A stretch of DNA of 64,000 nucleotides from Candidatus Gastranaerophilales bacterium (GCA_944322935.1 CALUQO010000001.1:43934-107933), one strand, 5' to 3'; shown: positions 16,797 to 44,184, counted from the first letter of the stretch. Numbers and translations are program-made. The notes: generated by a model from the sequence alone, not told the origin.

Positions 16797-17527
16797 TGAG
16801 CTGCCGTAATTGCTTTTTTAAACTCTTCCACATCCTCTTTGGTATCAATGCCGATTGGTTTTATATTCACTATTGAAGTAATTATCCTCATGCCGGATTG
16901 CAAAGCACGCAGCTGCTCTAAGCTTTCGGCTTTTTCCAGCATTGTTTGATTTAGAGAAGTCATTTTAAACAAAGCCTCTCTTTTATAACCGTAAAGTCCT
17001 ATGTGACCGTAGAAAACAGCTTCGCCAATATTTCTTTCGTAAGGAATTTTTGAACGTGAAAAATAAAGAGCAAAGTTGTTGTTGTCAATAACACATTTCA
17101 CAAGATTCGGATTTTCAACTTCATCTTTATCTGTTATAACTCTTAAAAGTGTTGCGATATCAGCATCTTTACCGGATTTTAGCGCGGTTATAACCCCATC
17201 TATGGCTTCGGGGGTAATCATAGGTTCATCGCCCTGAAGATTAACAATGTATTCAAAGTCTTCATGGCGTGAGGCTACTTCTGCAATTCTGTCGGAACCG
17301 CATTTGTGGTCTGCTCTTGTCATTTCTGCGTTGCCGCCAAAGGATTTTACAGAATTGTAAATTTTTTCATGGTCTGTTGCAACAATCACAGTGTCTGCCT
17401 GTTTTACGGCTGATGCCTTCTCGTAAACCCATTGGATAATAGGCTTTCCGTCAACTTCGATTAACGGTTTTGCGTGGAGTCTTGTTGATGCATATCTTGA
17501 AGGTATGATGATTGCTGTTTTTGTCAT
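16790..17527 (-). CDS. kdsB: 3-deoxy-manno-octulosonate cytidylyltransferase (CMP-KDO synthetase)
   Basis: IIPSRYASTRLHAKPL, NLQGDEP and HIGLYGY motifs. Length is 245 aa. Confidence 0.93.
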   Translation of the reverse strand: MTKTAIIIPSRYASTRLHAKPLIEVDGKPIIQWVYEKASAVKQADTVIVATDHEKIYNSVKSFGGNAEMTRADHKCGSDRIAEVASRHEDFEYIVNLQGDEPMITPEAIDGVITALKSGKDADIATLLRVITDKDEVENPNLVKCVIDNNNFALYFSRSKIPYERNIGEAVFYGHIGLYGYKREALFKMTSLNQTMLEKAESLEQLRALQSGMRIITSIVNIKPIGIDTKEDVEEFKKAITAAHQ

Positions 17528-17599
17528 TATTTTTACTCTTTCGTATTTTCTTTTTAATTCTGATATAATTATATTACAAAACAGAGGGAGCGGTTAACG

Positions 17600-18682
17600 T
17601 TGGCAATTTTTTCGGATAACGATAATATTCAAAAAACATTAAAAATTGAACGTGATAAAAAAAACGAAAACCTTGAGTCTAAAGAAATAGGCTATGATAG
17701 GGCTTTTGAAAATAACATACGTCCGCAGACTCTTGAAGAGTACATAGGACAAACCGCACTGAAAAGTACTTTAAAAATTTCGATTGAGGCTGCTCAAAAA
17801 AGAAATAAACAAATAGACCACATGCTGTTTTACGGCCCCCCGGGACTTGGTAAAACAACGCTTGCTTCTGTTATAGCTAACGAGTTAAAAACCAAAATTA
17901 AAATCACTTCTGCCCCTGCTCTGGAGCGTCCGAGAGATATTATCGGTATACTGATGTCTTTAAAAAACGGCGAAATTCTTTTTATAGATGAAATTCACCG
18001 CTTAAACAAGGTTACGGAAGAAATCTTGTATCCGGCTATGGAAGATTTTTTTCTTGATATGACAACAGGCAAGGCGCAAACCGTAAAAACTCTGAGAGTT
18101 CCTCTGCCGAAATTTACGCTTATCGGTGCCACAACAAAAGCCGGAGCATTGTCGGGTCCTCTTCGTGACAGGTTCGGGATAATACACAGGCTGCAGTTTT
18201 ATACAATTGATGAGCTTGCGCAGGTAATATCAAGAACAGCAAAAATTTTAGAAATTGATATAGATGAAGAAGGTGCAAAAACTATCGCAAGCCGCTCAAG
18301 AGGCACTCCGAGAATTGCAAACAGGCTGGTGAAAAGGGTTGCGGATTATGCTCTTGTAAAAGCTGACGCCAAAATTACAAAACCCGTTGCGATAGAAGCG
18401 CTTAACAATCTGCACATTGATGAAAGCGGTCTGGATTCAACCGACAGAGAGATGATGAAGCTTATTATCGAAAAATACGACGGCGGCCCCGTCGGGCTGG
18501 AAACTATTGCCGCTGCACTTGGTGAGGATTCAAGAACAATCGAAGATGTTTATGAACCGTACCTTTTGCAGGAAGGTTTTATACAAAGAACCCCCAGAGG
18601 CAGAAGAGTTTCTCCGGAAGGTTACAGAATGCTTGGATACAAATTACCCTCAAACCCTTCGGGACAACAGAGTTTGTTTTGA
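17600..18682 (+). CDS. ruvB: Holliday junction branch-migration helicase RuvB
   Basis: [11 protein letters not shown], Walker [10 protein letters not shown], Walker [14 protein letters not shown], sensor [10 protein letters not shown] and a C-terminal winged helix. TTG start 9 nt after GGGAG. Confidence 0.95.
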
Positions 18683-18808
18683 ATTTTTTTGGTTTGACGT
18701 ATATTTTTTGAAATTATCTTTGTAACAAAATTTAAACAAATATAAAAATTTGTTTCCATTCTTTACTACAAAAGTGGTAATATTTAATAAAAAAAGGGAA
18801 AAAGATTT

Positions 18809-19357
18809 ATGAAAGTTACTGCTGTCTCTGCGAATGGACAAAATCGCATTAATTGTGCTGGAAAAAATCAGAAGAATAATCCGGCTTTTGAGGGTGTTTA
18901 TGTTAAAGGTCTAAAACAACAGGATATTTTGAACCTGTATGAAGACGGGCCAGGCATTTGGAGAATGATAAAAAACGTTACTCCTTATTTAAAAGAAAAA
19001 TTTCCGATGTTTCATACGGTTATTCAGGTAGGCAGAAATTATTTCCGTGATATTAATGTTTCATTTATCAGAAACAAAGCAATGGATCATGAGCTGAAAA
19101 ATTATATTGTTAACAAAAACAGCTCAACGTTCCAATTACCGGATTATATTGTAGATTCTTTCAGGTACGGAAGTGATGATTTTGCCGGATTTTTGGACGG
19201 AAAAAATTACACACCTATGCTAAAAATGCAATACGGAAAACTTGGTGAAGCGGATGCAACAAACCGTTTTATGAGATTTATACGCACAAACAATCAGGAC
19301 TCGGTCATAAGATATATGTATGAAAACGAGGGTTCAACAATAACAAATAACATATAG
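18809..19357 (+). CDS. hypothetical protein carrying the N-terminal M-K-V...PAFEG leader
   Basis: 182-aa ORF. Leader is MKVTAVSANGQNRINCAGKNQKNNPAFEG. No TM helix or Sec signal. Distantly similar layout to the next ORF (GP....I.PYL). Confidence 0.6.
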   Translation: MKVTAVSANGQNRINCAGKNQKNNPAFEGVYVKGLKQQDILNLYEDGPGIWRMIKNVTPYLKEKFPMFHTVIQVGRNYFRDINVSFIRNKAMDHELKNYIVNKNSSTFQLPDYIVDSFRYGSDDFAGFLDGKNYTPMLKMQYGKLGEADATNRFMRFIRTNNQDSVIRYMYENEGSTITNNI

Positions 19358-19387
19358 ATAACAGTAAATGGTCTGAGGTAAAAAATA

Positions 19388-20089
19388 ATGAAAATAAATT
19401 CAATAAATAACAGTCTGACAGTTCATAACTCCCGCAAAAATAACAACAAACATAAACCTGCTTTTGGGGCTAAGGTACAGTACTTTGATGTTGTAAAAGA
19501 TGTTGTTTCCAATGAATTAATAGACATAACCAAGGGCCCGCTAAAAACATTAACGGATAGAATCATACCTTATTTGCAAAGGCTGGATGATGACAATTTG
19601 ATAATAACAATCAGCGGTACCCAAAAAAAACCAGGGTTTCTGGATCTTTTTAAAAGCAAACCCGATCAGGGGCTTAAATTTGATTTAAATTATTTTGACG
19701 CAAAAAGATTCTATAATAAATTTATGTCCGATGCAGAACTGCCAAAATTTTTGGATCCTGAATATTTAAAAGGTTTCAAAAGAAAAGACGAAGTGCTTAT
19801 GAATACACTTACGGAAACCATCGGTGTCGGGAAAATATACAGGCCCGACAAAGGCGAAACTCCGGAACAATTTATTGGTGAGGTTATACCCAAAATACAA
19901 GAACATCTGAGAATTATGCCCAAACTCATAACAGAGGGCAGAGCTGATATAAAATACGATACAAAATTTCAACACTTTGTACAAAACGGTCAGATTGACC
20001 CGACTCAAAGAAGACCCTGGAATCTTTACAGGGGGATTGAATTTGATTATCCCAAAATAGAGTTTACGGACATGAAACAAGTTGTGTGA
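19388..20089 (+). CDS. hypothetical protein carrying the N-terminal M-K-I...PAFGA leader
   Basis: 233-aa ORF. Leader is MKINSINNSLTVHNSRKNNNKHKPAFGA. A GAGG RBS is present. Confidence 0.6.
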   Translation: MKINSINNSLTVHNSRKNNNKHKPAFGAKVQYFDVVKDVVSNELIDITKGPLKTLTDRIIPYLQRLDDDNLIITISGTQKKPGFLDLFKSKPDQGLKFDLNYFDAKRFYNKFMSDAELPKFLDPEYLKGFKRKDEVLMNTLTETIGVGKIYRPDKGETPEQFIGEVIPKIQEHLRIMPKLITEGRADIKYDTKFQHFVQNGQIDPTQRRPWNLYRGIEFDYPKIEFTDMKQVV

Positions 20090-20100
20090 TTTTAAATTTG

Positions 20101-20146
20101 CAAAACTGTCGTTAAGAAATAAAAAGTCTGACGGCAGTTTTGTTTG
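20101..20146. terminator. hairpin between convergent genes (probable bidirectional terminator)
   Basis: AAACTGTCGT ... ACGGCAGTTT forms a 10-bp stem (one G-U pair), flanked by A-run/T-run. Confidence 0.6.
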
Positions 20147-20151
20147 ATAAT

Positions 20152-20466
20152 TTATTTTACGAGTGCTTTGGCTATTTTATAAAAATCTTTCATTCTTTCG
20201 GGATTATTTTCTAGAATGTTTTCAATTTCCGCCTTTAAATCTTCTGTTGTGTTATGATGCTCAAACTGAAAAACATCACTAAAATCTGCATCAAGTACAA
20301 TTAAAATTTTTTCAAGAGTAGATATTAACGGATAATTTCTGCCTGTGACAATATTACTTAGAGTGGTCGGCTCTACACCAATGATTTCGGCAAGTTTTTC
20401 CTGACTGATATTTTTTTGCTTTATTAATTCTTTTATACGTTTACCAAGCAGCTTTTTTTTATCCAT
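20152..20466 (-). CDS. XRE-family helix-turn-helix transcriptional regulator
   Basis: LGKRIKELIKQKNISQEKLAEIIGVEPTTLSNIVTGRNYP is a typical HTH_3 domain. Confidence 0.85.
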   Translation of the reverse strand: MDKKKLLGKRIKELIKQKNISQEKLAEIIGVEPTTLSNIVTGRNYPLISTLEKILIVLDADFSDVFQFEHHNTTEDLKAEIENILENNPERMKDFYKIAKALVK

Positions 20467-20710
20467 ATTTTCAACTTTCAGTTTGCTACCTTTTTAATCG
20501 TACAAAATAAAACAAAACGCCGACATAAAATTATACTGACTTTGCAGCCGAGAAATCAGTATAAATATAAAAACATACCAAAATCTCCCGCGTATGCAAA
20601 ATTTATTCAAACTTCACATGTTGCTAAACCCTACGCACAAAAACTTTTAAGTCTCTCTGTTTTGTTGCACACAAAAATCACAATCGCAGCGTCAGAAGCG
20701 GGTTTGATTT

Positions 20711-22138
20711 TTACATATAATACGCAACTAGCTGGCACAAACGAATTATTTTATCCGCAAAAAGAGAAATCAGCACTGAGGCCACTGCACAAGCATACAG
20801 AATATACTTTGAGGATATCAGTCTTGTATCCGTCACAATTTCTGTTTCTATACGTCTGAACATCGCTCTGATTATACGCCAGTATGCGTATATCATAATT
20901 ACTGACGAAACAAGTGCCGCCAGCAAAAACGGAAGGAACACAAATCCGGAACGAGCTACTGCAGAAAAAACATACAACTTAGCAACAAAACCACACGTAG
21001 GAGCTACCCCTGCAAGTGCGATAAGTATTATTGTAAACGCTATTACATAATACGGTCTGTGATACAATATCCCCTTCAAGTCGTCCAGTTTTTCAAGCTT
21101 TGCAGAGTTATACAGCAATATGATTGCCGCCCAGGCTCCTATATTTACGAACATATAACAAAACAAATAAAACAATACACTCGACAAACTGTAAACAGAA
21201 AACACGCATAATCCCAAAAGCATTATACCGGATTGAACACTCATTGAATAGGCCATGAGACGTTTGAGGTTTTCCTGCCTTATTGCGGACAAAGAGCCAA
21301 AAAGTATTGTTAACACAGCAATAAACGCCAGTACTATTTTCATTGTAAAAGTATAAGTCAAAAAAGTCATAAGTATTCTGGACAAAGCCCCAAAACATGC
21401 CAGCACCGGAATACAAGACATATATGCGCCGATAGGATAATTCGCCCCCTCAAACGTATCGGGCAGCCAGCTTGAAAAAGGCACAAGCCCCAGTTTAAAC
21501 AGCATGGTACAAATCATCAGTATCAATGCAAAGGTGAGCAGTATTTGAGAAGGGTTCTGGCTGAAACACAGGCTGACCTTTGCATAATCCAGCTGTGCGC
21601 ACATTCCGTATATAATCGACAGTCCCATCAAAAAGAAAGACGAAACCACTGCCCCCTGCACAAGGTATCCGAAGGTAAGCTGTTTTGCGTTAGGGCTTTT
21701 GTTCAAAGCCAAAAGCAGATAACAGCTCAGTCCCAGTGCCTCGAGCGCAACAAAAAGAGACACAAAATTAACCGAGCTGACAGCACACATTGCAAAAAGC
21801 AGACCCGACAAAAATACACAGAAATACTCGGACGCCCTATCACGCTTTTCCCGTATCATATTGCGTGAAAGCAGAACCAGAAAGAAACCGCTGCTTAAAA
21901 TGAGTATTTTAAAAAACACTGTATAAATGTTTGTTAAAAACATATTGTCAAACGCAAACACCTCGGGATCTATCTGTAAATATATTGTGGAGCCTATGGC
22001 CAGCACAATTCCAAGAAGCGTTGTCCATTTTGATATACGATAAACCGACATCCCTGCAAATAAGGAGAACACAAGATTTATAACGACGAATATCAGTATA
22101 ATAAATTCGGGCAAATATGCGGCTACAAGTTCTGACAT
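20711..22138 (-). CDS. nuoN: NuoN/NdhB-like antiporter-type subunit (divergent)
   Basis: About 14 TM helices. FVALEALGLSCYLLLAL and LFKLGLVPFSSWLPD motifs. Start set at ATG 22138 (RBS GAGAGG) rather than the upstream GTG. Confidence 0.8.
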   Translation of the reverse strand: MSELVAAYLPEFIILIFVVINLVFSLFAGMSVYRISKWTTLLGIVLAIGSTIYLQIDPEVFAFDNMFLTNIYTVFFKILILSSGFFLVLLSRNMIREKRDRASEYFCVFLSGLLFAMCAVSSVNFVSLFVALEALGLSCYLLLALNKSPNAKQLTFGYLVQGAVVSSFFLMGLSIIYGMCAQLDYAKVSLCFSQNPSQILLTFALILMICTMLFKLGLVPFSSWLPDTFEGANYPIGAYMSCIPVLACFGALSRILMTFLTYTFTMKIVLAFIAVLTILFGSLSAIRQENLKRLMAYSMSVQSGIMLLGLCVFSVYSLSSVLFYLFCYMFVNIGAWAAIILLYNSAKLEKLDDLKGILYHRPYYVIAFTIILIALAGVAPTCGFVAKLYVFSAVARSGFVFLPFLLAALVSSVIMIYAYWRIIRAMFRRIETEIVTDTRLISSKYILYACAVASVLISLFADKIIRLCQLVAYYM

Positions 22139-22163
22139 TATTCCTCTCACACCTATAGAATTT

Positions 22164-23687
22164 TCACACCTGAAGTATATCCAAAATTATACTGGAAACA
22201 GACTGATAAATTTGAATTATACTCATCGGATTTATACCAAAATACACAATCACAAGACACAAGGCGCTAAGTACGCTTGTTTCCTGAGGAGAAAGATCCT
22301 TAACCCCTTTCCATTGTTCCAAAAGCACAGAACAAAATACTTTATAGAAGAAATATAGAATATACCCAGCAGACACCATCATTGCCACAAGCCCTATTGC
22401 TGCACTGATTTTGACAAGCAGCTGCTGATCAAGGTTGGATAACATTGCGCCTGCAAGCACCATTAATTTTGGTGTAAACATCATCAAGAACGGTATTCCT
22501 ATCGCGGCAAAGCAGATTATAAGCGCCAGATACATACACTTTGGCATAACCTGTCCCAAACCGCCAAGAGCTGTTATATAAGTGGTTTTGGTTCTAAACT
22601 CTACGCTTGAAATCACCACAAAAAGCGCAGCGTACACAACAGCACACGCTATTGTCATGAACACAGCACCGTTAAATCCTGTTTGGTTTAATGCTGCAAG
22701 ACCCAGCATAACAAAGCCTGTCGCTGCAACATTAGAATACGATACCATTTTTTTTACACCTGCCTGAATAACGGATAAAGCCCCGCAATAAATGATATTA
22801 AGCAGTCCCCATACCATTAAAACAGGTGCAAAGAGTTTGAATATTTCTGGAAATACCTGCATATTAAAGCGAATCAGCCCGTAAACACCCGTTGCACTTA
22901 ACATAGCGGCAAGCAATATATTTACAGGTGCTGCAGACTTGCTCTGTATATCAGGATACCAATTGTGAAAAGGTACAAGAGGTATCCTCACAACAAAGCC
23001 TATGAGAAAGTTTACAAACACCATTACCTGAAACCACATCGGATAAATCTTTTCATCCATGTTAAGTGATTCGATGTTTGCTGTCAGCACATTACTTACT
23101 GCAAAATTGTAATAATACAAAATCAACATACCAAAAAACAGGAACATATTGGCAACAAAAGAAGAGAGCGTAAATTTTATCGCAGCTCCTCTTGCCTCTG
23201 AGTTCCCCCACTGAGAAACAAGAAAATAAACAGGTACAAGCAAAAGTTCCCAGAAAACAAAGAACAAAAACATATCCTTAGCGCAGAATATGCCAAGAAC
23301 AGCGGATTCCAGCAAAAACACCATTGAATAATAGAGTTTATGTTTTGTTCTTATGTGCATTTTACTCATAAACAGTGCAATTAATACAATAAACGTTGTT
23401 AGTACAGACAACAGCAAGGTCATCCCGTCAACAGCAAACTTTGCGCTGATACCAAGTGTCTTAAGCCAGCTCATACCAAAAAACGTAAGCTCTTTTTCAA
23501 AAGACATTCCGTACATACTTGCATCAAAAAACAGCAAAAACAAAAGGGAATATACAAAATGCAGACCGGCAAACCACTTTGCAAAACGTCTTATTCTAAC
23601 CTGATGGTTAGGAAACACAGGCAGCATTATCAATATTGCCGCTATAACAGGAAGAAATATTAACCATATTAAAGATAAAAAATTCAT
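22164..23687 (-). CDS. nuoM: NuoM/NdhD-like antiporter-type subunit (divergent)
   Basis: FFVFWELLLVPVYFLVSQWG and IPLVPFHNWYPD motifs. AAGGGG RBS. Confidence 0.85.
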   Translation of the reverse strand: MNFLSLIWLIFLPVIAAILIMLPVFPNHQVRIRRFAKWFAGLHFVYSLLFLLFFDASMYGMSFEKELTFFGMSWLKTLGISAKFAVDGMTLLLSVLTTFIVLIALFMSKMHIRTKHKLYYSMVFLLESAVLGIFCAKDMFLFFVFWELLLVPVYFLVSQWGNSEARGAAIKFTLSSFVANMFLFFGMLILYYYNFAVSNVLTANIESLNMDEKIYPMWFQVMVFVNFLIGFVVRIPLVPFHNWYPDIQSKSAAPVNILLAAMLSATGVYGLIRFNMQVFPEIFKLFAPVLMVWGLLNIIYCGALSVIQAGVKKMVSYSNVAATGFVMLGLAALNQTGFNGAVFMTIACAVVYAALFVVISSVEFRTKTTYITALGGLGQVMPKCMYLALIICFAAIGIPFLMMFTPKLMVLAGAMLSNLDQQLLVKISAAIGLVAMMVSAGYILYFFYKVFCSVLLEQWKGVKDLSPQETSVLSALCLVIVYFGINPMSIIQIYQSVSSIILDILQV

Positions 23688-23703
23688 CTATAAAACCCCT
23701 TAA

Positions 23704-24861
23704 TTAGCCCTTTATAAGTAAAACATAAAATATCAAAACAAATGTAAGTATTGCTACAAGCCCAAGCAGCGAGTATATTAAATACGACTGAAAATTGCCG
23801 CCCTGGAAGCGTCCGCTTACATAAGACAGCGCCCTAAAAAGCAATGCAACCAAATTTATAAATGTTTCAACAACATATTTTTCTATCCAACCCGCAACAC
23901 GACAAAGCGGAATAAAAAACCTGTTGGCTATACCAAAAGACACAAATATAAAAATAAGAACAGGAATAGTCCACCAGAAATTCTTGGATAGCTCAAAAAA
24001 GAACGGGTTTAGCCTGATAAACAAAAACACACCTACAAGCGCAAAAAGGCTGTTTTGATACAGAATTATTTTTGAAGTGTCAGTTTTATTACTGGATTCA
24101 AACGTTATATAAATAAATGCCTGCATAAATTTCATTATCACTACAAACATAAGCAGCGAGCAGAAAAATACAAAAACAGGTTCGGCCATAAGCGAATGGA
24201 TACTTCCCGCAATATTGCCAATATTCGAATAAGCAAGAGCAGATAATCCGGAAAGCTCATTATACACAACGGAAAAATACATTGTGACAAGAACATCCAA
24301 AAGTAATATTAAATCACCGACTCTGTTAAAGATGTAAGATTTTATTGCAGCTTTAGACTCTGCTCTGTTTTCAAAATCAAAATTTATCAAAAGGTAGCTT
24401 GCAACCCCAGCAACTTCGCAGAACAAATATGTCTGGAACAGATTAGAGCTGATAAATATACCATTCAAACCAAGGGCAAAAAAGTTTATATACAAAAGCA
24501 AACGTGAAAAATCATTATGCTCCCTAAGCTTGAAAAACGCAAAATTCTGTATAAAAAATGCCGCCACGTTAGTAAGTAAAACAAAGCTTACAGCTGTTTT
24601 ATCTATGTATGTTCCCATATAAAGACTGATATTTTCAAGCGATATCCATTGAAAATTTTGGGTTAATGACAGATTTTTCATTACAGAAAAATCAAACACC
24701 GCAGCAGAAAATATCATACATATAAATGCAGATATTATACTTATTGAAAAAATTGTTGCCTTATCAATTCTGTTAGAAATAAGACGATTAAACCCTATTA
24801 TCAAACATATAATAAGAGGCAGAAAAACAACAAGATTTATGTTATCCGTAAAAAACTCCAT
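23704..24861 (-). CDS. nuoL: NuoL-like subunit, short (385 aa) and divergent
   Basis: The N-terminal half matches NuoL (CEVAGVASYLLINF....AAIKSYIFNRVGD). The extreme C-terminus matches the NuoL tail (RFQGGNFQSYLIYSLLG). About 230 aa of the usual central region are absent. Confidence 0.7.
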   Translation of the reverse strand: MEFFTDNINLVVFLPLIICLIIGFNRLISNRIDKATIFSISIISAFICMIFSAAVFDFSVMKNLSLTQNFQWISLENISLYMGTYIDKTAVSFVLLTNVAAFFIQNFAFFKLREHNDFSRLLLYINFFALGLNGIFISSNLFQTYLFCEVAGVASYLLINFDFENRAESKAAIKSYIFNRVGDLILLLDVLVTMYFSVVYNELSGLSALAYSNIGNIAGSIHSLMAEPVFVFFCSLLMFVVIMKFMQAFIYITFESSNKTDTSKIILYQNSLFALVGVFLFIRLNPFFFELSKNFWWTIPVLIFIFVSFGIANRFFIPLCRVAGWIEKYVVETFINLVALLFRALSYVSGRFQGGNFQSYLIYSLLGLVAILTFVLIFYVLLIKG

Positions 24862-25187
24862 TAATTCTCCTTATCTTTAATTTTTTCAGCATCAAGATAC
24901 TCGTTTGCCTGATAAATTTTATACAAAATTACAAGCGCAATGATTGTTTGTATTACAGCGAGAATAAGCACAAAAACGCTTATCATATTGGCATTTTCCA
25001 TACTTCTGTCGCAATAATAGCCGAATGCGGCAAAATTTATCACTGAGGAAACCGACATTATAAAAAGCGACATTACCGTCCTTAACATGTTACGGGAAAT
25101 CAAAACTCCCAACAATCCTGTCAAAAACAATATCAAAGACAAAATTAAAAAATGAGCAAGACCTATATTAAGCAATGAATTTATCAT
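24861..25187 (-). CDS. nuoK: NuoK/NdhE-like subunit (divergent)
   Basis: 108 aa with 3 TM helices. HFLILSLILFLTGLLGVLISRNML matches the NuoK N-terminus. Both ends are translationally coupled (TAATG and ATGA overlaps). Confidence 0.8.
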   Translation of the reverse strand: MINSLLNIGLAHFLILSLILFLTGLLGVLISRNMLRTVMSLFIMSVSSVINFAAFGYYCDRSMENANMISVFVLILAVIQTIIALVILYKIYQANEYLDAEKIKDKEN

Positions 25188-25717
25188 AACTTATTTTCCT
25201 CCTGCTCTTTAGGCTGCTCCACAGAAAGCGAATTATCCAAAAAGACTCTCAAAACGACTGCCGACACCAGCACAAACACCCCGACCAGACTCAATGGATA
25301 AAGGTAATGCCTGAAATTCACCGTGTCAAAAGATTTTTCTACTACCGCATTGAAAAAAGAATAAAGCGAGCTGTCAAATTCCTGAAAGAAATACAATACA
25401 AACAATCCGCCGAATAACAGGACAAACACACTGCTTACAAGTATTTTGGAAAAAGGTGCAAGCCCCAATCTTAAATTTATTCGTCCTATTTTTTTTATCA
25501 AAAGGAAAATATACACAGACAAAAACAATCCGCAAAGTATAAACTGAAACACCGAAAGATAAACAGAGTTTAAGTATAAATATATAAGGCTAGAAAAACA
25601 CACAAACAAAAATAAAGATATCGCAGACAGATACATCATTGGTGCAAATATTATCCCAAATGCAGAGCAGATGATTCCAAAAAACAGAAAATAAAAATAT
25701 ATCAAATTTGTAACCAC
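25184..25717 (-). CDS. nuoJ: NuoJ/NdhG-like subunit (divergent)
   Basis: 177 aa with about 5 TM helices, in the position and order expected for nuoJ upstream of nuoK. GTG start 6 nt after AGGAG. Sequence similarity to NuoJ is weak, so the call relies partly on gene order. Confidence 0.6.
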   Translation of the reverse strand: MVTNLIYFYFLFFGIICSAFGIIFAPMMYLSAISLFLFVCFSSLIYLYLNSVYLSVFQFILCGLFLSVYIFLLIKKIGRINLRLGLAPFSKILVSSVFVLLFGGLFVLYFFQEFDSSLYSFFNAVVEKSFDTVNFRHYLYPLSLVGVFVLVSAVVLRVFLDNSLSVEQPKEQEENKL

Positions 25718-25810
25718 TCTGCACTCCTGTAATGTGTGTCTTTTTTATTTATACCACATATTGATGATGTTATAATTAGAATGTTGTGAATTATTAAGTT
25801 CAATTTTTAT

Positions 25811-26506
25811 ATGAAAAAAAATATTTTTATTATAACAATGCTTTTATGTTTTCTGTTGTGTTATTATACGCCGAAAACAAACGCAGAAACAGCGGAGCCC
25901 TTAAAAAATGAACCCCTTGCAAATTCTTACTGCGCAAAAGGCGACAAAATCCTTGATTACTATGAAAAACTTTCAGACAAAACAGACTCGAATAAATATC
26001 TGATTGCTGCTAAGTATTATTATTATCAGGCGGCAAGGGTTGATATTTCAAATCAGAATTCCTTTGTCGGAATGGCAAGAATTTCTCTTTATCAGGGAAA
26101 AACCAAAGATGCAAAAAATGCGCTTATGATTGCGCTAAATGTTAACGAAAAGAATCCCAAAGTAAGCTTTTATCTTGGCGAGGCATTTTTTATGGAGCAA
26201 GAGTACTTTCAGGCTATAGATTTTTATACCTGGGCGTATTCGAACGGATACCAAAAAGATTTCAAAACAAATTACAAACTCGGGGTATGTTACGAAAAAT
26301 TAAATGATATAGAAAAAGCAAAATATCATTATCAAAAAGCAATAAATGCAAGACCCAATGACGCGGAAGTAAAACAACGTCTGCAGAGTTTAATGACAAC
26401 AGAGGCAGAATACCAAAATACAAATACTAAAGATATTCTGTATCCGCCTAAGGATTATGCAATAGACAAAAGTGATATGGAAAAACTTAATATGCCGAAT
26501 TTGTAA
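25811..26506 (+). CDS. secreted TPR-repeat protein
   Basis: Signal peptide MKKNIFIITMLLCFLLCYYTPKTNA, followed by several TPR-like repeats (AKYYYYQAARVD, FYLGEAFFMEQEYFQAIDFY, YKLGVCYEKLNDIEKAKYHYQKAI). Confidence 0.8.
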   Translation: MKKNIFIITMLLCFLLCYYTPKTNAETAEPLKNEPLANSYCAKGDKILDYYEKLSDKTDSNKYLIAAKYYYYQAARVDISNQNSFVGMARISLYQGKTKDAKNALMIALNVNEKNPKVSFYLGEAFFMEQEYFQAIDFYTWAYSNGYQKDFKTNYKLGVCYEKLNDIEKAKYHYQKAINARPNDAEVKQRLQSLMTTEAEYQNTNTKDILYPPKDYAIDKSDMEKLNMPNL

Positions 26507-26630: not shown

Positions 26631-27539
26631 CTATTTTGTCTTTGATATTTTTTCTTCTCTTTTTTCAAGAGTCTCTTCAAACTGAGCCATTGCCTCCATT
26701 CCCACCAGCTGTTCAAGAGCGGAGCGTTTTGATAAAAAATCAGAACGCAGCTTGCTTTGTTTGTTTAATGCCTCTCTGTAAAAAACATCCAGCATTATTA
26801 TCTGAGAATCCGAAAGCCCTTTTGTGTCGCTAAAATCCTTTCTCCTTTTTGCAACAAGCAAATCAGAACGCTGTAAGGCTTGACGCGAGGTCATGTAATC
26901 AAAATAATAAAATATAATTTTTCGCTGAAGTTCTTCAATCTTTCTGATTAACACAACCATATCTGCATCGTTAACTTTAGAAAATTTGTAGTTTAAATCC
27001 TTGTCATCCACAGACAAAGATCCCAGCACACTGCTGCCCATGATAGACGAAATTGCGGCAATCGGATTGCCTATACCTATACCGGCAAGACTACCCACTG
27101 TGGATATCGGCTGAATGATTTTTTTTACAATGCTTTCGTCAGGCTTGTCTTCATCGGGATTAGAAAGTTTGTAGACAATAAATTTAACAGTCTGGCTGTT
27201 TTGTGCTGCTCCTATCCACAAAAGTTGGATATCCGCCAGCATATCGGCTGATTCCAGCTCGGCATCGTCGCTGATTTCTTTTGCAATTTTTTTAAGACTC
27301 AAATCAGCATAAGTGATATTTTTTATTGCCTCTGCTTCTTTATCAAGTTTTGCGTCCTTTGCCTTTATTTCTTTATTTGCTTCAGAAACCTTGTATTTGT
27401 TTTCAGGTGCGGAACCTACACCCAGACGATAAGCAGGAGGCAGGGGCTCGGTTATTTCTTCAACGGAAATTGCGTAACAGGTCTGCAGTGTAAAAGCCGC
27501 AGCAAGCAAAACGGGAAAAAGTTTATTTTTTATCATCAT
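26631..27539 (-). CDS. secreted coiled-coil protein, paralog of the upstream gene
   Basis: Start placed at MMIKNKLFPVLLAAAFTLQTCYA (signal peptide) just after AAGGGGG. The second ATG at 27536 is equally possible. The C-terminal helical repeats weakly resemble outer-membrane-efflux (TolC-type) repeats. Confidence 0.65.
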   Translation of the reverse strand: MMIKNKLFPVLLAAAFTLQTCYAISVEEITEPLPPAYRLGVGSAPENKYKVSEANKEIKAKDAKLDKEAEAIKNITYADLSLKKIAKEISDDAELESADMLADIQLLWIGAAQNSQTVKFIVYKLSNPDEDKPDESIVKKIIQPISTVGSLAGIGIGNPIAAISSIMGSSVLGSLSVDDKDLNYKFSKVNDADMVVLIRKIEELQRKIIFYYFDYMTSRQALQRSDLLVAKRRKDFSDTKGLSDSQIIMLDVFYREALNKQSKLRSDFLSKRSALEQLVGMEAMAQFEETLEKREEKISKTK

Positions 27540-28407
27540 TTCCCCCTTTGCCTTTTTGATTATTACTTTTTGCATTGTCGCTTGAGCCAAAGAGCTCATT
27601 TTTAAAAGCATATTGATACAAATTCAAATTTTGTACTGTCTTTTTTCCGGCAAGCCGTTCCAAATCCATCTGGTATCTGCGGACTTCTCTTATTTGTTCA
27701 AATTCCTGAAACAATAAATCATCATATTGTGCACCCGAAACAAGCATTTCCATTTTATCCGCAGGGTTGCCGCTTTGCGCTTTTTTCAGGGCTGTTGAGT
27801 AGTTTTTGTTATACAAAACCAGACGCTGCCTTGTATCTTTTACCTGACTCAGTGCCATTTTATAGTTGTAATACGAATTTATTATCTGATCCTGCAAAGA
27901 TTCAATCATTCCCGCAAGTTCAATAAGTTCCGTATCAGTAAGCGGAACTTCTTTAGGGTTATTTACTTTGGCAAGATAGTTATTAGCAAGCCTTCCCGTT
28001 GCATAAGAGGCTGACTGCACCATATAATTGGCACCAAAAAGTGCAGGAACAAAAGAAGCTCCGTTAATCAGTGCCGCCGCTGATTTTGCCAGCAGTGAAG
28101 AGTGATATCTCTGTTGTTCCGGCGGTATTGATAATTTTTTCATTGCGAATTTTATAAGACTGTTGTTTTCAACCGTAGCTTCCCAGAGCATTTCAATATC
28201 TTCAATGTCTTTTTTTTGCTGCATGTCAGCAATACTCTTAAGAGCTTCTTCTTTGTCCACGGTCAGCTCTTTTGTCTCTTTTTTGACCTTAGGTGTGTAT
28301 TCAACCTTGTGTTTGTCTACGTTATCCAGTCCTATTTCATCGGCAAAAGAACAAGGAATGCACACCAGACTCGCCAGAACTATTAAACTCGCAATCAATT
28401 TTTTCAT
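27523..28407 (-). CDS. secreted coiled-coil protein, paralog of the downstream gene
   Basis: Signal peptide MKKLIASLIVLASLVCIPCSFA. It shares the layout (KF..KKLS.P, a Gly/Ala-rich patch, a C-terminal helical repeat) with 26631..27539. Confidence 0.7.
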   Translation of the reverse strand: MKKLIASLIVLASLVCIPCSFADEIGLDNVDKHKVEYTPKVKKETKELTVDKEEALKSIADMQQKKDIEDIEMLWEATVENNSLIKFAMKKLSIPPEQQRYHSSLLAKSAAALINGASFVPALFGANYMVQSASYATGRLANNYLAKVNNPKEVPLTDTELIELAGMIESLQDQIINSYYNYKMALSQVKDTRQRLVLYNKNYSTALKKAQSGNPADKMEMLVSGAQYDDLLFQEFEQIREVRRYQMDLERLAGKKTVQNLNLYQYAFKNELFGSSDNAKSNNQKGKGGNDDKK

Positions 28408-42966: not shown

Positions 42967-44184
42967 TTAGTTTTTATCATCAAAAGAAATCGTGTAATCA
43001 GGACTTACAGCCAGCCATCTGAAAGATTCCTGCTCATCATTTTCAGGCAGGTCAACAACAAATGTGCCGCCGTATCTTCCTCTTGAAAAATTGACAATAC
43101 CCTGTTTTGCAAGATTTTGCAAGGCTTTCCGTATTGTGTTTGAAGAAACATCAAACTGCTTTGCTAAATCATCCATGGAAGGAAGTTTGTCCCCTATATC
43201 ATAATTGGAAGAAATGAATTTTTTTATTTCATTTTCAATTTTTTGATAACTATAAAACGCTGCTTCCGCTGCTGAAGCGAATATTGATGTTTCGTTAAGA
43301 GGCTGCATGATATTTTGCGTGGAGTCATTGCCGGGAATTTTTATTATTGTTGTACCGTAACGTCCGCGCCGTGCCAGCAGATAGCCCTCATCAATAAGCG
43401 TTTTCATTGCATCGTGAACTGTTTTTATGCTTACTTTTAGAATCTCGGATAATTCTTGATGCGCCGGCAGTCTGTCGCCAATTTTATAATTTGTTCGTAT
43501 GTAGTCTTTTATTTCCTGCTCAACCTTGTATACAAGGGTATCTGCTGTTATTTCCTCCGCTTCATTGTGCAGAACCGACTCTTCTTCTTCGGAAAATTCT
43601 GGATATTTTTTTAATATCCAGTTAGAATCGTTTGAACGGAATGCTTTAGCAGCTATAACGCCCTGTGCCGCAAGAAAATCCAGTGCAAGTCTTATTGTAT
43701 TTGTTGAATTTCCTATTTCTGCAGCTAGAAAACGGGCAGAGGGAAGAGAATCGCCTAAAGCAAGATTGTTGTCAACGATATACTTTTTTATTTGGGTGAT
43801 TACTTTTTCTCTTTTTGAAGAGGCCTTTCGTATAATAGGATTAGAGGCACTTTCGCCCCTGATAATAGTACCGATGCGTTGTTTAGATTCCAGCAGTCCT
43901 GCATCTTCCACGCATCTTACCGCATTTTGTACAGTACCGACACTTACCCCCAAATAATATGCAAGATCCTGTTTTTTAGGCAGCAGTGAGTTAGGCCGGA
44001 TTCCGCCTTTTTGTATACCAGATACAATCCAATCGGTCAACCATTTTTTTATTATGGAATCTTTTGATTCAAATGTATTTTTAAAATCAGGAATCTCTTT
44101 TGGAAGCTGGTTAATTTCTATGCGATGGAGTTCTGATTTTTCTAATTTTTCAAATGTAATTTCTGATGCAGATTTGCCTGCCAT
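42967..44184 (-). CDS. protein composed of four tandem GntR-type winged-HTH domains
   Basis: Four copies of the GntR pattern (..G..LPS...LA...GVS..T...A...L...G.......G.G.FV) at aa ~43-108, 127-191, 217-282 and 311-377. No effector-binding domain. Confidence 0.8.
   Translation of the reverse strand: MAGKSASEITFEKLEKSELHRIEINQLPKEIPDFKNTFESKDSIIKKWLTDWIVSGIQKGGIRPNSLLPKKQDLAYYLGVSVGTVQNAVRCVEDAGLLESKQRIGTIIRGESASNPIIRKASSKREKVITQIKKYIVDNNLALGDSLPSARFLAAEIGNSTNTIRLALDFLAAQGVIAAKAFRSNDSNWILKKYPEFSEEEESVLHNEAEEITADTLVYKVEQEIKDYIRTNYKIGDRLPAHQELSEILKVSIKTVHDAMKTLIDEGYLLARRGRYGTTIIKIPGNDSTQNIMQPLNETSIFASAAEAAFYSYQKIENEIKKFISSNYDIGDKLPSMDDLAKQFDVSSNTIRKALQNLAKQGIVNFSRGRYGGTFVVDLPENDEQESFRWLAVSPDYTISFDDKN

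Follow-up and report, generated by a model that had tools for sequence, protein, structure and literature searches.

The 11-subunit form of complex I, which is devoid of NuoEFG, is known from Melainabacteria and cyanobacteria. Gut Melainabacteria have been reported to carry it although they possess neither quinones nor cytochromes (Di Rienzi et al., PMC3787301), and Spero (2015) discussed only operons lacking NuoEFG. A smaller set is found in the gut bacterium Gilliamella, in which all 95 genomes hold only nuoJKLMN, interpreted as remnants of genome reduction (PMC11325843). Here we describe a cluster of five nuoJKLMN-like genes at positions 20711-25717, on the minus strand, of a stretch of 64,000 nucleotides from a Candidatus Gastranaerophilales bacterium (GCA_944322935.1 CALUQO010000001.1:43934-107933); this whole stretch is referred to below as the window. 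In the literature that we searched there was precedent for nuoJKLMN-only sets in Gilliamella and none in Melainabacteria, nor was there any description of a five-gene form in Gastranaerophilales, of an internally deleted NuoL, or of the residue pattern and selection regime of this clade. The direct source of the cluster is the 11-subunit enzyme, to which J to N are orthologous, in the same gene order and beside the same flanking gene, which codes for a tetratricopeptide repeat (TPR) protein; the NuoM protein is ca. 50% identical to that of Gastranaerophilales with the full operon. The cluster differs from the 11-subunit complex in that the locus has none of A, B, C, D, H, and I, NuoL is shorter by ca. 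260 residues, and the residues of the E-channel and central axis have been replaced. We consider it fairly likely that the five genes are what remained after the deletion of nuoA-I and that they encode a membrane complex under selection, J-K-L'-M-N (L' standing for the shortened NuoL), dedicated to a non-canonical, redox-independent ion transport.

The locus is composed of the following features:
25811-26506, plus strand: TPR protein, 231 aa, with TPR Pfam matches, divergent from nuoJ and used as synteny marker
25718-25810, no strand: intergenic region of 93 bp between the divergent nuoJ-like and TPR genes, read from the sequence
25184-25717, minus strand: nuoJ-like gene, 177 aa
24861-25187, minus strand: nuoK-like gene, 108 aa
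23704-24861, minus strand: nuoL-like gene (L'), 385 aa, internally deleted
22164-23687, minus strand: nuoM-like gene, 507 aa
20711-22150, minus strand: nuoN-like gene, 479 aa, or 475 aa from the ATG at 22138

The five open reading frames (ORFs) follow the order J-K-L-M-N and are translationally coupled, with overlaps of 4 nt (J/K) and 1 nt (K/L) and gaps of 16 nt (L-M) and 13-25 nt (M-N). The latter range reflects the two possible starts of nuoN, of which the ATG at 22138 (475 aa), matching the gene calls in the near-identical contigs L088-L091, is the more likely. The intergenic region is likely the promoter region of the cluster, and within it a GGAG located 8 nt ahead of the GTG start of nuoJ provides a ribosome-binding site. 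A promoter and terminator scan returned one promoter-like site on the minus strand (25817->25790), but with counts not above the shuffled expectation, so that it carries no evidential weight. A preliminary description of this DNA, made from the sequence alone, had reported five coupled genes in this order with their own 5' intergenic region and without nuoA-I on either side, and our gene calls and coordinates are in agreement with it.

The individual genes were assigned to families as follows. NuoK matched PF00420 (4e-16), NuoM scored 359 bits with TIGR01972 (NuoM), above the cutoff, and had cyanobacterial NdhD1 as its closest match in the PDB (6hum_D, 2e-68), while NuoN scored 277 bits with TIGR01770 and matched 6hum_B (1.9e-54). 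The NuoL-like protein covered only the first ca. 300 positions of the NuoL/NdhF profiles, which span 615-675 residues. No Pfam or NCBIfam match was obtained for the NuoJ-like protein; it is a full-length NuoJ homologue by profile comparison (hhalign probability 97.6%, E 4e-12, six J-like against 13 NuoJ sequences) and by BLASTP against the NuoJ of the full-operon locus L014 (1.8e-7). The closest solved structures for the cluster are the NDH-1 subunits NdhD1, NdhB, and NdhF of T. elongatus. When the 11 subunits of the full-operon locus L004 were compared by BLASTP with all open frames of at least 70 aa in the window, only K, L, M, and N gave matches. Neither this search nor the Pfam scans revealed any homologue of nuoA, B, C, D, H, or I in the 64 kb, and the same held for the 10 kb on each side of six representative loci with five genes. 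Some 50 further ORFs of the window, scanned with Pfam, turned out to be housekeeping genes, with no respiratory genes among them. The cluster is no functional complex I. Of five features that define such an enzyme, this locus has J-N orthology and gene order, and four others are not found: the genes of the quinone (Q) module, NuoA/H, a full-length NuoL with 16 transmembrane helices (TMs), and the central titratable axis. No quinone or ferredoxin site is possible in the five proteins.

The window belongs to a gut member of the Gastranaerophilales (Melainabacteria/Vampirovibrionia), its NuoM homologues being annotated as Candidatus Gastranaerophilaceae, and this agrees with the fermentative lineage that the preliminary description had supposed. 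The exact NuoM protein of the window is present on contigs of many gut metagenomes, and NuoM proteins of the same clade on more than 500 contigs. Homologues of NuoM fall into ca. 105 clusters at 68-92% identity, all of ca. 507 aa, followed by a gap, all others being at most 52% identical. Inspection of the genomic context (10 kb on each side in relatives) showed that the close group has an identical five-gene layout (177/108/385/507/475-480 aa), whereas the group at ca. 50% identity has contiguous nuoA-B-C-D-H-I-J-K-L-M-N with a NuoL of 632-642 aa. When a single genome was scanned for each GTDB species, the five-gene form was found in five species, CALVAT01 (NuoM 95% identical to that of the window), DVOD01 "Ca. 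Limenecus avicola", CALUPF01, CALUPP01, and URHD01, and no second NuoM-type locus was returned from these five assemblies. Nearly all of the 21 further Melainabacteria loci in the scan had the full 11-gene operon, a few being cut by contig ends. The five-gene form is therefore lineage-wide, with at least five GTDB species representatives and ca. 100 clusters that conserve the gene lengths. Altogether, 23 Melainabacteria loci carry contiguous nuoABCDHIJKLMN and six representatives, the window included, carry only J-K-L'-M-N.

In a tree of NuoM plus NuoN the five-gene loci form a single clade with 100% bootstrap, which branches from within the Gastranaerophilales that have the full operon. Upstream of nuoJ in the window lies a TPR gene whose homologue in L005 precedes nuoA (BLASTP 3e-25), and a homologue holds this position in 13 or more of the full-operon loci and in all loci with five genes. 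This conserved 5' boundary indicates that nuoA-I were deleted in place and that J-N were not relocated. The simplest history is that the cluster is the remainder of an 11-gene NuoEFG-less operon after the in-place loss of nuoA-I in one clade. One further locus, L006 (5720-13014; Logan SRR33013276_8606), has seven genes, nuoA-H-J-K-L-M-N, i.e., a complete membrane arm from which the Q module is absent. Here nuoBCD are cleanly gone, with the stop of nuoA abutting the start of nuoH, and so is nuoI, leaving a gap of 104 bp between H and J. As a sister of the five-gene clade L006 had 96% support in the NuoM tree and 1% in the NuoN tree. We also noticed a nuo gene split into two ORFs in two metagenome-assembled genomes (MAGs) with the full operon, nuoL in L019 (5351-7228) and nuoH in L027 (5306-6535), either by assembly error or by incipient decay of the operon.

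A feature that the preliminary description did not report is the internal deletion of NuoL. L' has 385 aa against the 642 aa of a full-length relative (the full-length range being 606-681 aa), with ca. 260 internal residues gone. Aligned with MAFFT to the 632-649-aa NuoL of L004, L005, and L006 and to that of E. coli, residues 1 to ca. 311 of L' correspond to TM1 to ca. TM9 and are joined directly to the last ca. 72 residues, made up of the terminal part of the lateral helix HL, in which the Q-x-G-N-x-Q-x-Y motif is conserved, and of TM16. What is missing (ca. TM10-15) is the second half-channel, and with it H334, H338, K342, K399, and D400; in addition, the PLHVWLxDAMEGPTP broken-helix motif of TM7 is degenerate. 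The AlphaFold2 model of L' (pLDDT 84.4, pTM 0.76) shows TM1-8, including the beta-hairpin typical of these subunits, then a long helix (285-353) and, at 357-384, a last TM, and its closest Foldseek matches are NdhF/NuoL over the N-terminal ca. 300 residues (TMq 0.58-0.66). The number of TMs ahead of the amphipathic lateral helix is odd, as in full-length NuoL, from which we infer that the topology has been preserved. The architecture is a stable one: the ca. 100 sequence clusters of L', with identities of 46-99%, are nearly all of 383-390 aa, with a few shorter fragments among the entries listed, and the architecture was seen in no other lineage.

The residues of the proton relay were compared in MAFFT alignments of each subunit, including the six five-gene representatives, L006, the 23 full-operon loci, and E. 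coli MG1655, whose numbering is used throughout. All 23 full-operon loci keep E36 of K, Y59 of J, E144, K234, K265, H348, and E407 of M, E133, K217, K247, and K395 of N, and E144, D178, K229, H254, H338, K342, and K399 of L. In the five-gene clade a good part of these have been replaced. NuoK E36, Glu in 23/23 full-operon loci, is F or L in 6/6 representatives (Phe42 in the window), and NuoJ Y59 has become C or G (Cys in the window), the invariant Glu in TM5 of NuoJ having gone as well. NuoM has lost K265 (A/N/S/G/C; Ala265 in the window), H322 (A/S/T/V; Ala), and H348 (C/A/S/L; Cys), and shows two changes of charged residues, K234 to R in 6/6 representatives and 96/98 sequences, and E407 to K, rarely R, in the whole clade (Lys in the window), by which titratable sites have turned into fixed charges. 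In NuoN, K247 is V or P (Val in the window) and H305 is Q, and H254 of NuoL is Q. On the other hand, the clade has kept E144 of M, E133 (5/6), K217, and K395 of N, and E144, D178, and K229 of L; M and N also retain the discontinuous-helix motifs of TM7 and TM12, with P236, H241, W243, P399, and F404 invariant. The loss is selective, in that the relay residues joining half-channels and adjacent subunits are gone and the buried ion-pair residues have been kept or made into fixed charges. The variability of the relay positions within the clade indicates relaxed constraint there. L006 has several of these changes in common with the five-gene clade (K265Q, H322S, and E407K in M, K247I and H305Q in N, H254N, K399T, and D400A in L, and Y59L in J), and retains E36 and E72 of NuoK and a full-length NuoL.

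These alignments bear out the central claim of the preliminary description, that canonical proton-relay residues have been lost, and make it specific to this clade. Its individual readings of NuoK Glu36 as Phe42, of NuoM Lys234 as Arg and Glu407 as Lys, of the second Lys of NuoN as Val, and of the TM5 Glu as kept in L, M, and N hold in the alignment. Other readings had to be qualified. Lys265 of NuoM is indeed lost, but it aligns with Ala265 and not, as had been read, with the Ser at 264, one position off. The change of Glu72 of NuoK to Gln80 is real; however, it has no diagnostic value, as Gln is also found at this position in the full-operon loci L004, L005, L014, L024, and L025. Its presence in operons that are otherwise canonical indicates that E72 is not essential in the complex I of this order. 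The same applies to the PFH motif of NuoN, read correctly as PFS in the window, since most full-operon relatives also have A, S, N, or Q in place of the His. The losses of NuoJ Y59, M H322 and H348, N H305, and L H254, and the retention of K217 and K395 of N and of K229 and D178 of L, had gone unreported.

Between the window and L008 the ratio of nonsynonymous to synonymous substitution rates (dN/dS, Nei-Gojobori) was 0.057 for J, 0.066 for K, 0.059 for L', 0.033 for M, and 0.024 for N, and between L011 and L012 it was 0.05-0.14 for the five genes. Within the species (window and L091) we counted 62 synonymous and 4 nonsynonymous differences over the five genes, a ratio of nonsynonymous to synonymous polymorphism (pN/pS) of 0.019, the value for the flanking genes being 0.085. 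Measured by the divergence of the TPR gene next to the cluster, M and N have not become faster than they are in intact operons, whereas K, J, and L' evolve ca. 1.6-fold faster relative to M than in full-operon clades, N being unchanged. The five genes are clearly functional, and neutral decay is refuted. The preliminary description had left the choice between a relic and a repurposed membrane arm, proposing dN/dS as a check for purifying selection; with values of 0.02-0.07 in all five genes, the pN/pS of 0.019, and gene lengths that stay fixed down to 46% identity, the repurposed arm stands and the neutral relic does not. Strong purifying selection on all five genes thus argues that the cluster has been repurposed and is not decaying. 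In the comparisons of the window with L088 and L091 there was also a several-fold raised synonymous divergence (pS) in nuoN (20711-22138), at 0.06-0.12 against 0.003-0.02 in nuoM and ca. 0.015 in the flanks, which suggests an import by recombination confined to nuoN.

What would the remaining complex do? The loss of nuoA-I removed the quinone/ferredoxin module (B, C, D, and I) together with the membrane subunits for its docking (A and H), and nuoL of the same clade lost its second half-channel by an internal deletion that would have preserved the topology. J, K, N, M, and L' would most likely still assemble into a membrane complex, with a subunit set equal to the Mrp core and no redox input. 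The canonical lateral relay has been taken apart: neither the TM8 Lys nor the connecting His is left in M and N, NuoL is without H254, NuoK without E36, and NuoJ without Y59. The buried TM5-Glu/TM7-Lys(Arg) pairs and the TM12 Lys are retained, and gradient-driven exchange of Na+ or K+ against H+, or a cation conductance, might take place through the remaining half-channels on the N side. Arg cannot shuttle protons and the TM8 Lys and His are missing, which makes canonical pumping or canonical antiport unlikely; as judged from its residues, the complex would be neither a redox-driven nor a canonical proton pump. The residual gradient-driven cation/H+ exchange or conductance is a specific proposal that we put forward tentatively, its chances being somewhat short of even. 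We prefer it over a purely structural role because M and N are as constrained as in a working enzyme, because they keep the discontinuous-helix motifs and the buried Glu and Lys, and because a disconnected membrane arm can exchange Na+ for H+, as deactive mammalian complex I does (PMC3464577). The latter enzyme has all its subunits and canonical residues, while in the cluster the arm has been cut off for good, by the loss of genes, and its relay residues have gone as well.

Several observations weigh against redox-independent ion transport by the five proteins. Antiporters of the Mrp type, too, cannot do without the TM8 Lys and the connecting His, so that the canonical antiport mechanism would not be available. 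The changes of K to R and of E to K in M would fit static salt bridges as well as they would fit transport. Neither the ORFs of the window nor the flanks in its relatives contained a conserved gene for a partner or any other hint at the function. The values of dS between the window and L008 (0.9-1.5) are near saturation, although the within-species comparison is unsaturated. Lastly, the search with NuoD of L004 as query was saturated owing to the strong conservation of this protein: the 120 matches listed were all at 58% identity or more and none was on more than 22 contigs, which is at most weak evidence for the absence of this subunit from the clade.

According to a rival reading, J-K-N-M-L' would simply be a stable membrane body, for example a docking platform or organiser for another protein, that moves no ions and in which the retained Glu, Lys, and Arg residues form salt bridges between helices and subunits. 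We take this to be rather unlikely. It would account for the titratable relay residues being gone and free to vary in the clade (M265 A/N/S/G/C; M348 C/S/A/L), for charges that became non-titratable or complementary, with R fixed at K234 of M, for the lack of the whole second half-channel in L', and for the change of E407 of M to K, which, by the geometry of established complex I structures, would face E144/D178 of L'. Nevertheless, M and N are as slow as in intact complex I when compared with the neighbouring gene and have the lowest dN/dS of the locus, more constraint than is usual for a passive scaffold; their TM7 and TM12 motifs have been retained, and there is no linked and conserved gene that could be a candidate partner. 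A different kind of explanation is that nuoA, B, C, D, H, and I reside elsewhere in the genome and the cluster is the distal arm of a divergent but working 11-subunit enzyme. In oxygenic cyanobacteria the ndh genes are indeed scattered, our inspection covered 64 kb of this genome and 10 kb on each side in relatives, and an 11-subunit complex I has been reported for gut Melainabacteria (PMC3787301). We nonetheless find it improbable, as each of the 23 other Melainabacteria loci has its 11 genes in one contiguous block, the conserved TPR neighbour points to six genes removed in place, half of a subunit is missing from L', and this clade alone has lost the residues (E36 of K, Y59 of J, and the central Lys/His axis) by which the Q site is coupled to the antiporter-like subunits. 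Among the matches listed there was also no high-prevalence NuoD at 60% identity or more, in comparison with NuoM on more than 500 contigs, which again is weak evidence. Table S1 of Grettenberger 2021 (PMC8235220) moreover includes Melainabacteria MAGs (at most 89.7% complete) for which only nuoL/M(/N) are annotated, though these could not be tied to this clade by sequence.

That the genes are non-functional leftovers of genome reduction, drifting towards pseudogenes as proposed for nuoJKLMN of Gilliamella, we consider highly improbable. Key catalytic residues have been lost, J, K, and L' have accelerated by ca. 1.6-fold relative to M, and nuoJKLMN-only sets have been read as remnants before (PMC11325843), all of which would be expected of a relic. 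Five intact ORFs with conserved lengths in ca. 100 sequence clusters and at least five species would not be, nor would dN/dS of 0.02-0.07, the 62:4 ratio of synonymous to nonsynonymous differences within the species, or the preservation of translational coupling and ribosome-binding site; the comparisons between species exclude that the low dN/dS is an artefact of recent common ancestry.

Returning to redox-independent ion transport as the preferred reading, there are other systems made of related subunits with which the cluster can be compared. Mrp, which the proposed complex would resemble in its way of working, is a redox-independent complex with a NuoL-like MrpA, the C-terminal part of which is NuoJ-like, a NuoM/N-like MrpD, and a NuoK-like MrpC. 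Its relationship to complex I has been reviewed (PMC5703873, PMC4938563). At the key positions of Mrp, transferred through NuoL/M/N, the cluster has the TM5 Glu, the TM7 Lys/Arg, and the TM12 Lys and lacks the TM8 Lys/His. Membership in the Mrp (CPA3) family was rejected, since there are five genes only, the Nuo models outscore those of Mrp (for NuoM 359 bits with NDH_I_M against 141 with MrpD), and MrpB, E, F, and G are missing. An inorganic-carbon pump of the DAB/Mps type, which pairs a PF00361 subunit with DabA, was likewise rejected, as there was no DabA (PF10070) among the genes called within 10 kb of the cluster in the relatives or in the window. Steuber and co-workers reportedly found that a C-terminally truncated E. 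coli NuoL (ca. 1-369) is a Na+/K+ transporter, which we mention as a lead. The extent of that fragment is like that of the N-terminal part of L', but it was artificial and expressed alone, whereas L' also comprises TM16 and the last part of the lateral helix, and its TM7 motif is degenerate. The likeness to Gilliamella and the Orbaceae is of another kind. The same five subunits have been kept, in a host-associated gut bacterium and with conservation throughout the lineage, in what is apparently a convergence: the phylum is another, the origin is independent, and the likeness is in gene content only. It is possible, although we would not put it at even chances, that two independent reductions to a J-K-L-M-N core, in Gastranaerophilales and in bee-gut Orbaceae, reveal an autonomous, hitherto undescribed activity of the distal arm that needs no canonical Lys/His wire, the Gastranaerophilales having also shed the relay residues and half of NuoL under selection as strong as on an intact enzyme. 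As candidates for such an activity we would name, with similar reserve, the transport or conduction of cations by a novel type of complex, or the organisation of the membrane, with L006 as an intermediate stage.

The surroundings of the cluster contain a number of other genes that deserve a brief mention:
18809-19357 and 19388-20089, plus strand: two adjacent proteins, 182 and 233 aa, with similar N-termini and no Pfam match, convergent with nuoN
20152-20466, minus strand: small XRE/HTH_3 regulator, between nuoN and the downstream pair
26631-27611 and 27523-28407, minus strand: two secreted-looking paralogues (31% identity over ca. 147 aa) in overlapping frames, no Pfam match
42967-44184, minus strand: 405-aa protein of unusual architecture, in which four GntR-type winged-helix domains stand in tandem and an effector domain is lacking

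The TPR protein bears a signal peptide and has equivalents in the same position, opposite the nuo promoter, in L001-L025, L032, and L050; the pairing may go beyond synteny, for example if the TPR protein were an assembly factor. Weak homologues (25-28% identity) of the pair at 18809-20089 are located downstream of nuoN in L001, L009, and L010 and not in full-operon loci. Among the four near-identical contigs, the XRE/HTH_3 gene was called in L088, L090, and L091 but not in L089, and it is absent from L001-type relatives; by this patchy presence it looks like a variable insertion. In L001-L003, relatives at 83% identity, an operon for a trimeric [FeFe] hydrogenase of the HydABC type (NuoE/NuoF/NuoG-like) was found at 16800-20957, 3.8 kb downstream of the five-gene cluster, with radA-like and sigma-factor genes in between. 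As a partner of the cluster this hydrogenase was rejected, given the unrelated genes that intervene and the lack of a copy in the 64-kb window.

The loci described here form a natural deletion series, from 11 genes (intact) through seven (the membrane arm without its Q module) to five (J-K-L'-M-N, with the relay replaced and half of NuoL gone). Such a series bears on the debated roles of the antiporter-like subunits and on whether the central charged axis is needed outside redox coupling. It also tells which residues can be dispensed with in the absence of a redox drive, and an autonomous function of the distal arm becomes directly testable. The five-gene form belongs to an abundant bacterium of the human and animal gut, in which the genes that are left are under the same degree of constraint as those of the intact enzyme. 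Gut Melainabacteria are usually credited with an 11-subunit complex I, and here a prevalent clade is without the full set at this locus, so that the automated label "NADH-quinone oxidoreductase subunit M/N" would make its capacity for respiration look larger than it is. With Gilliamella as a parallel case, J to N would seem to be the subunits that stay, time and again, when the other nuo genes are lost. What is left of the membrane arm has probably taken on another task, one that no longer depends on electron transfer.

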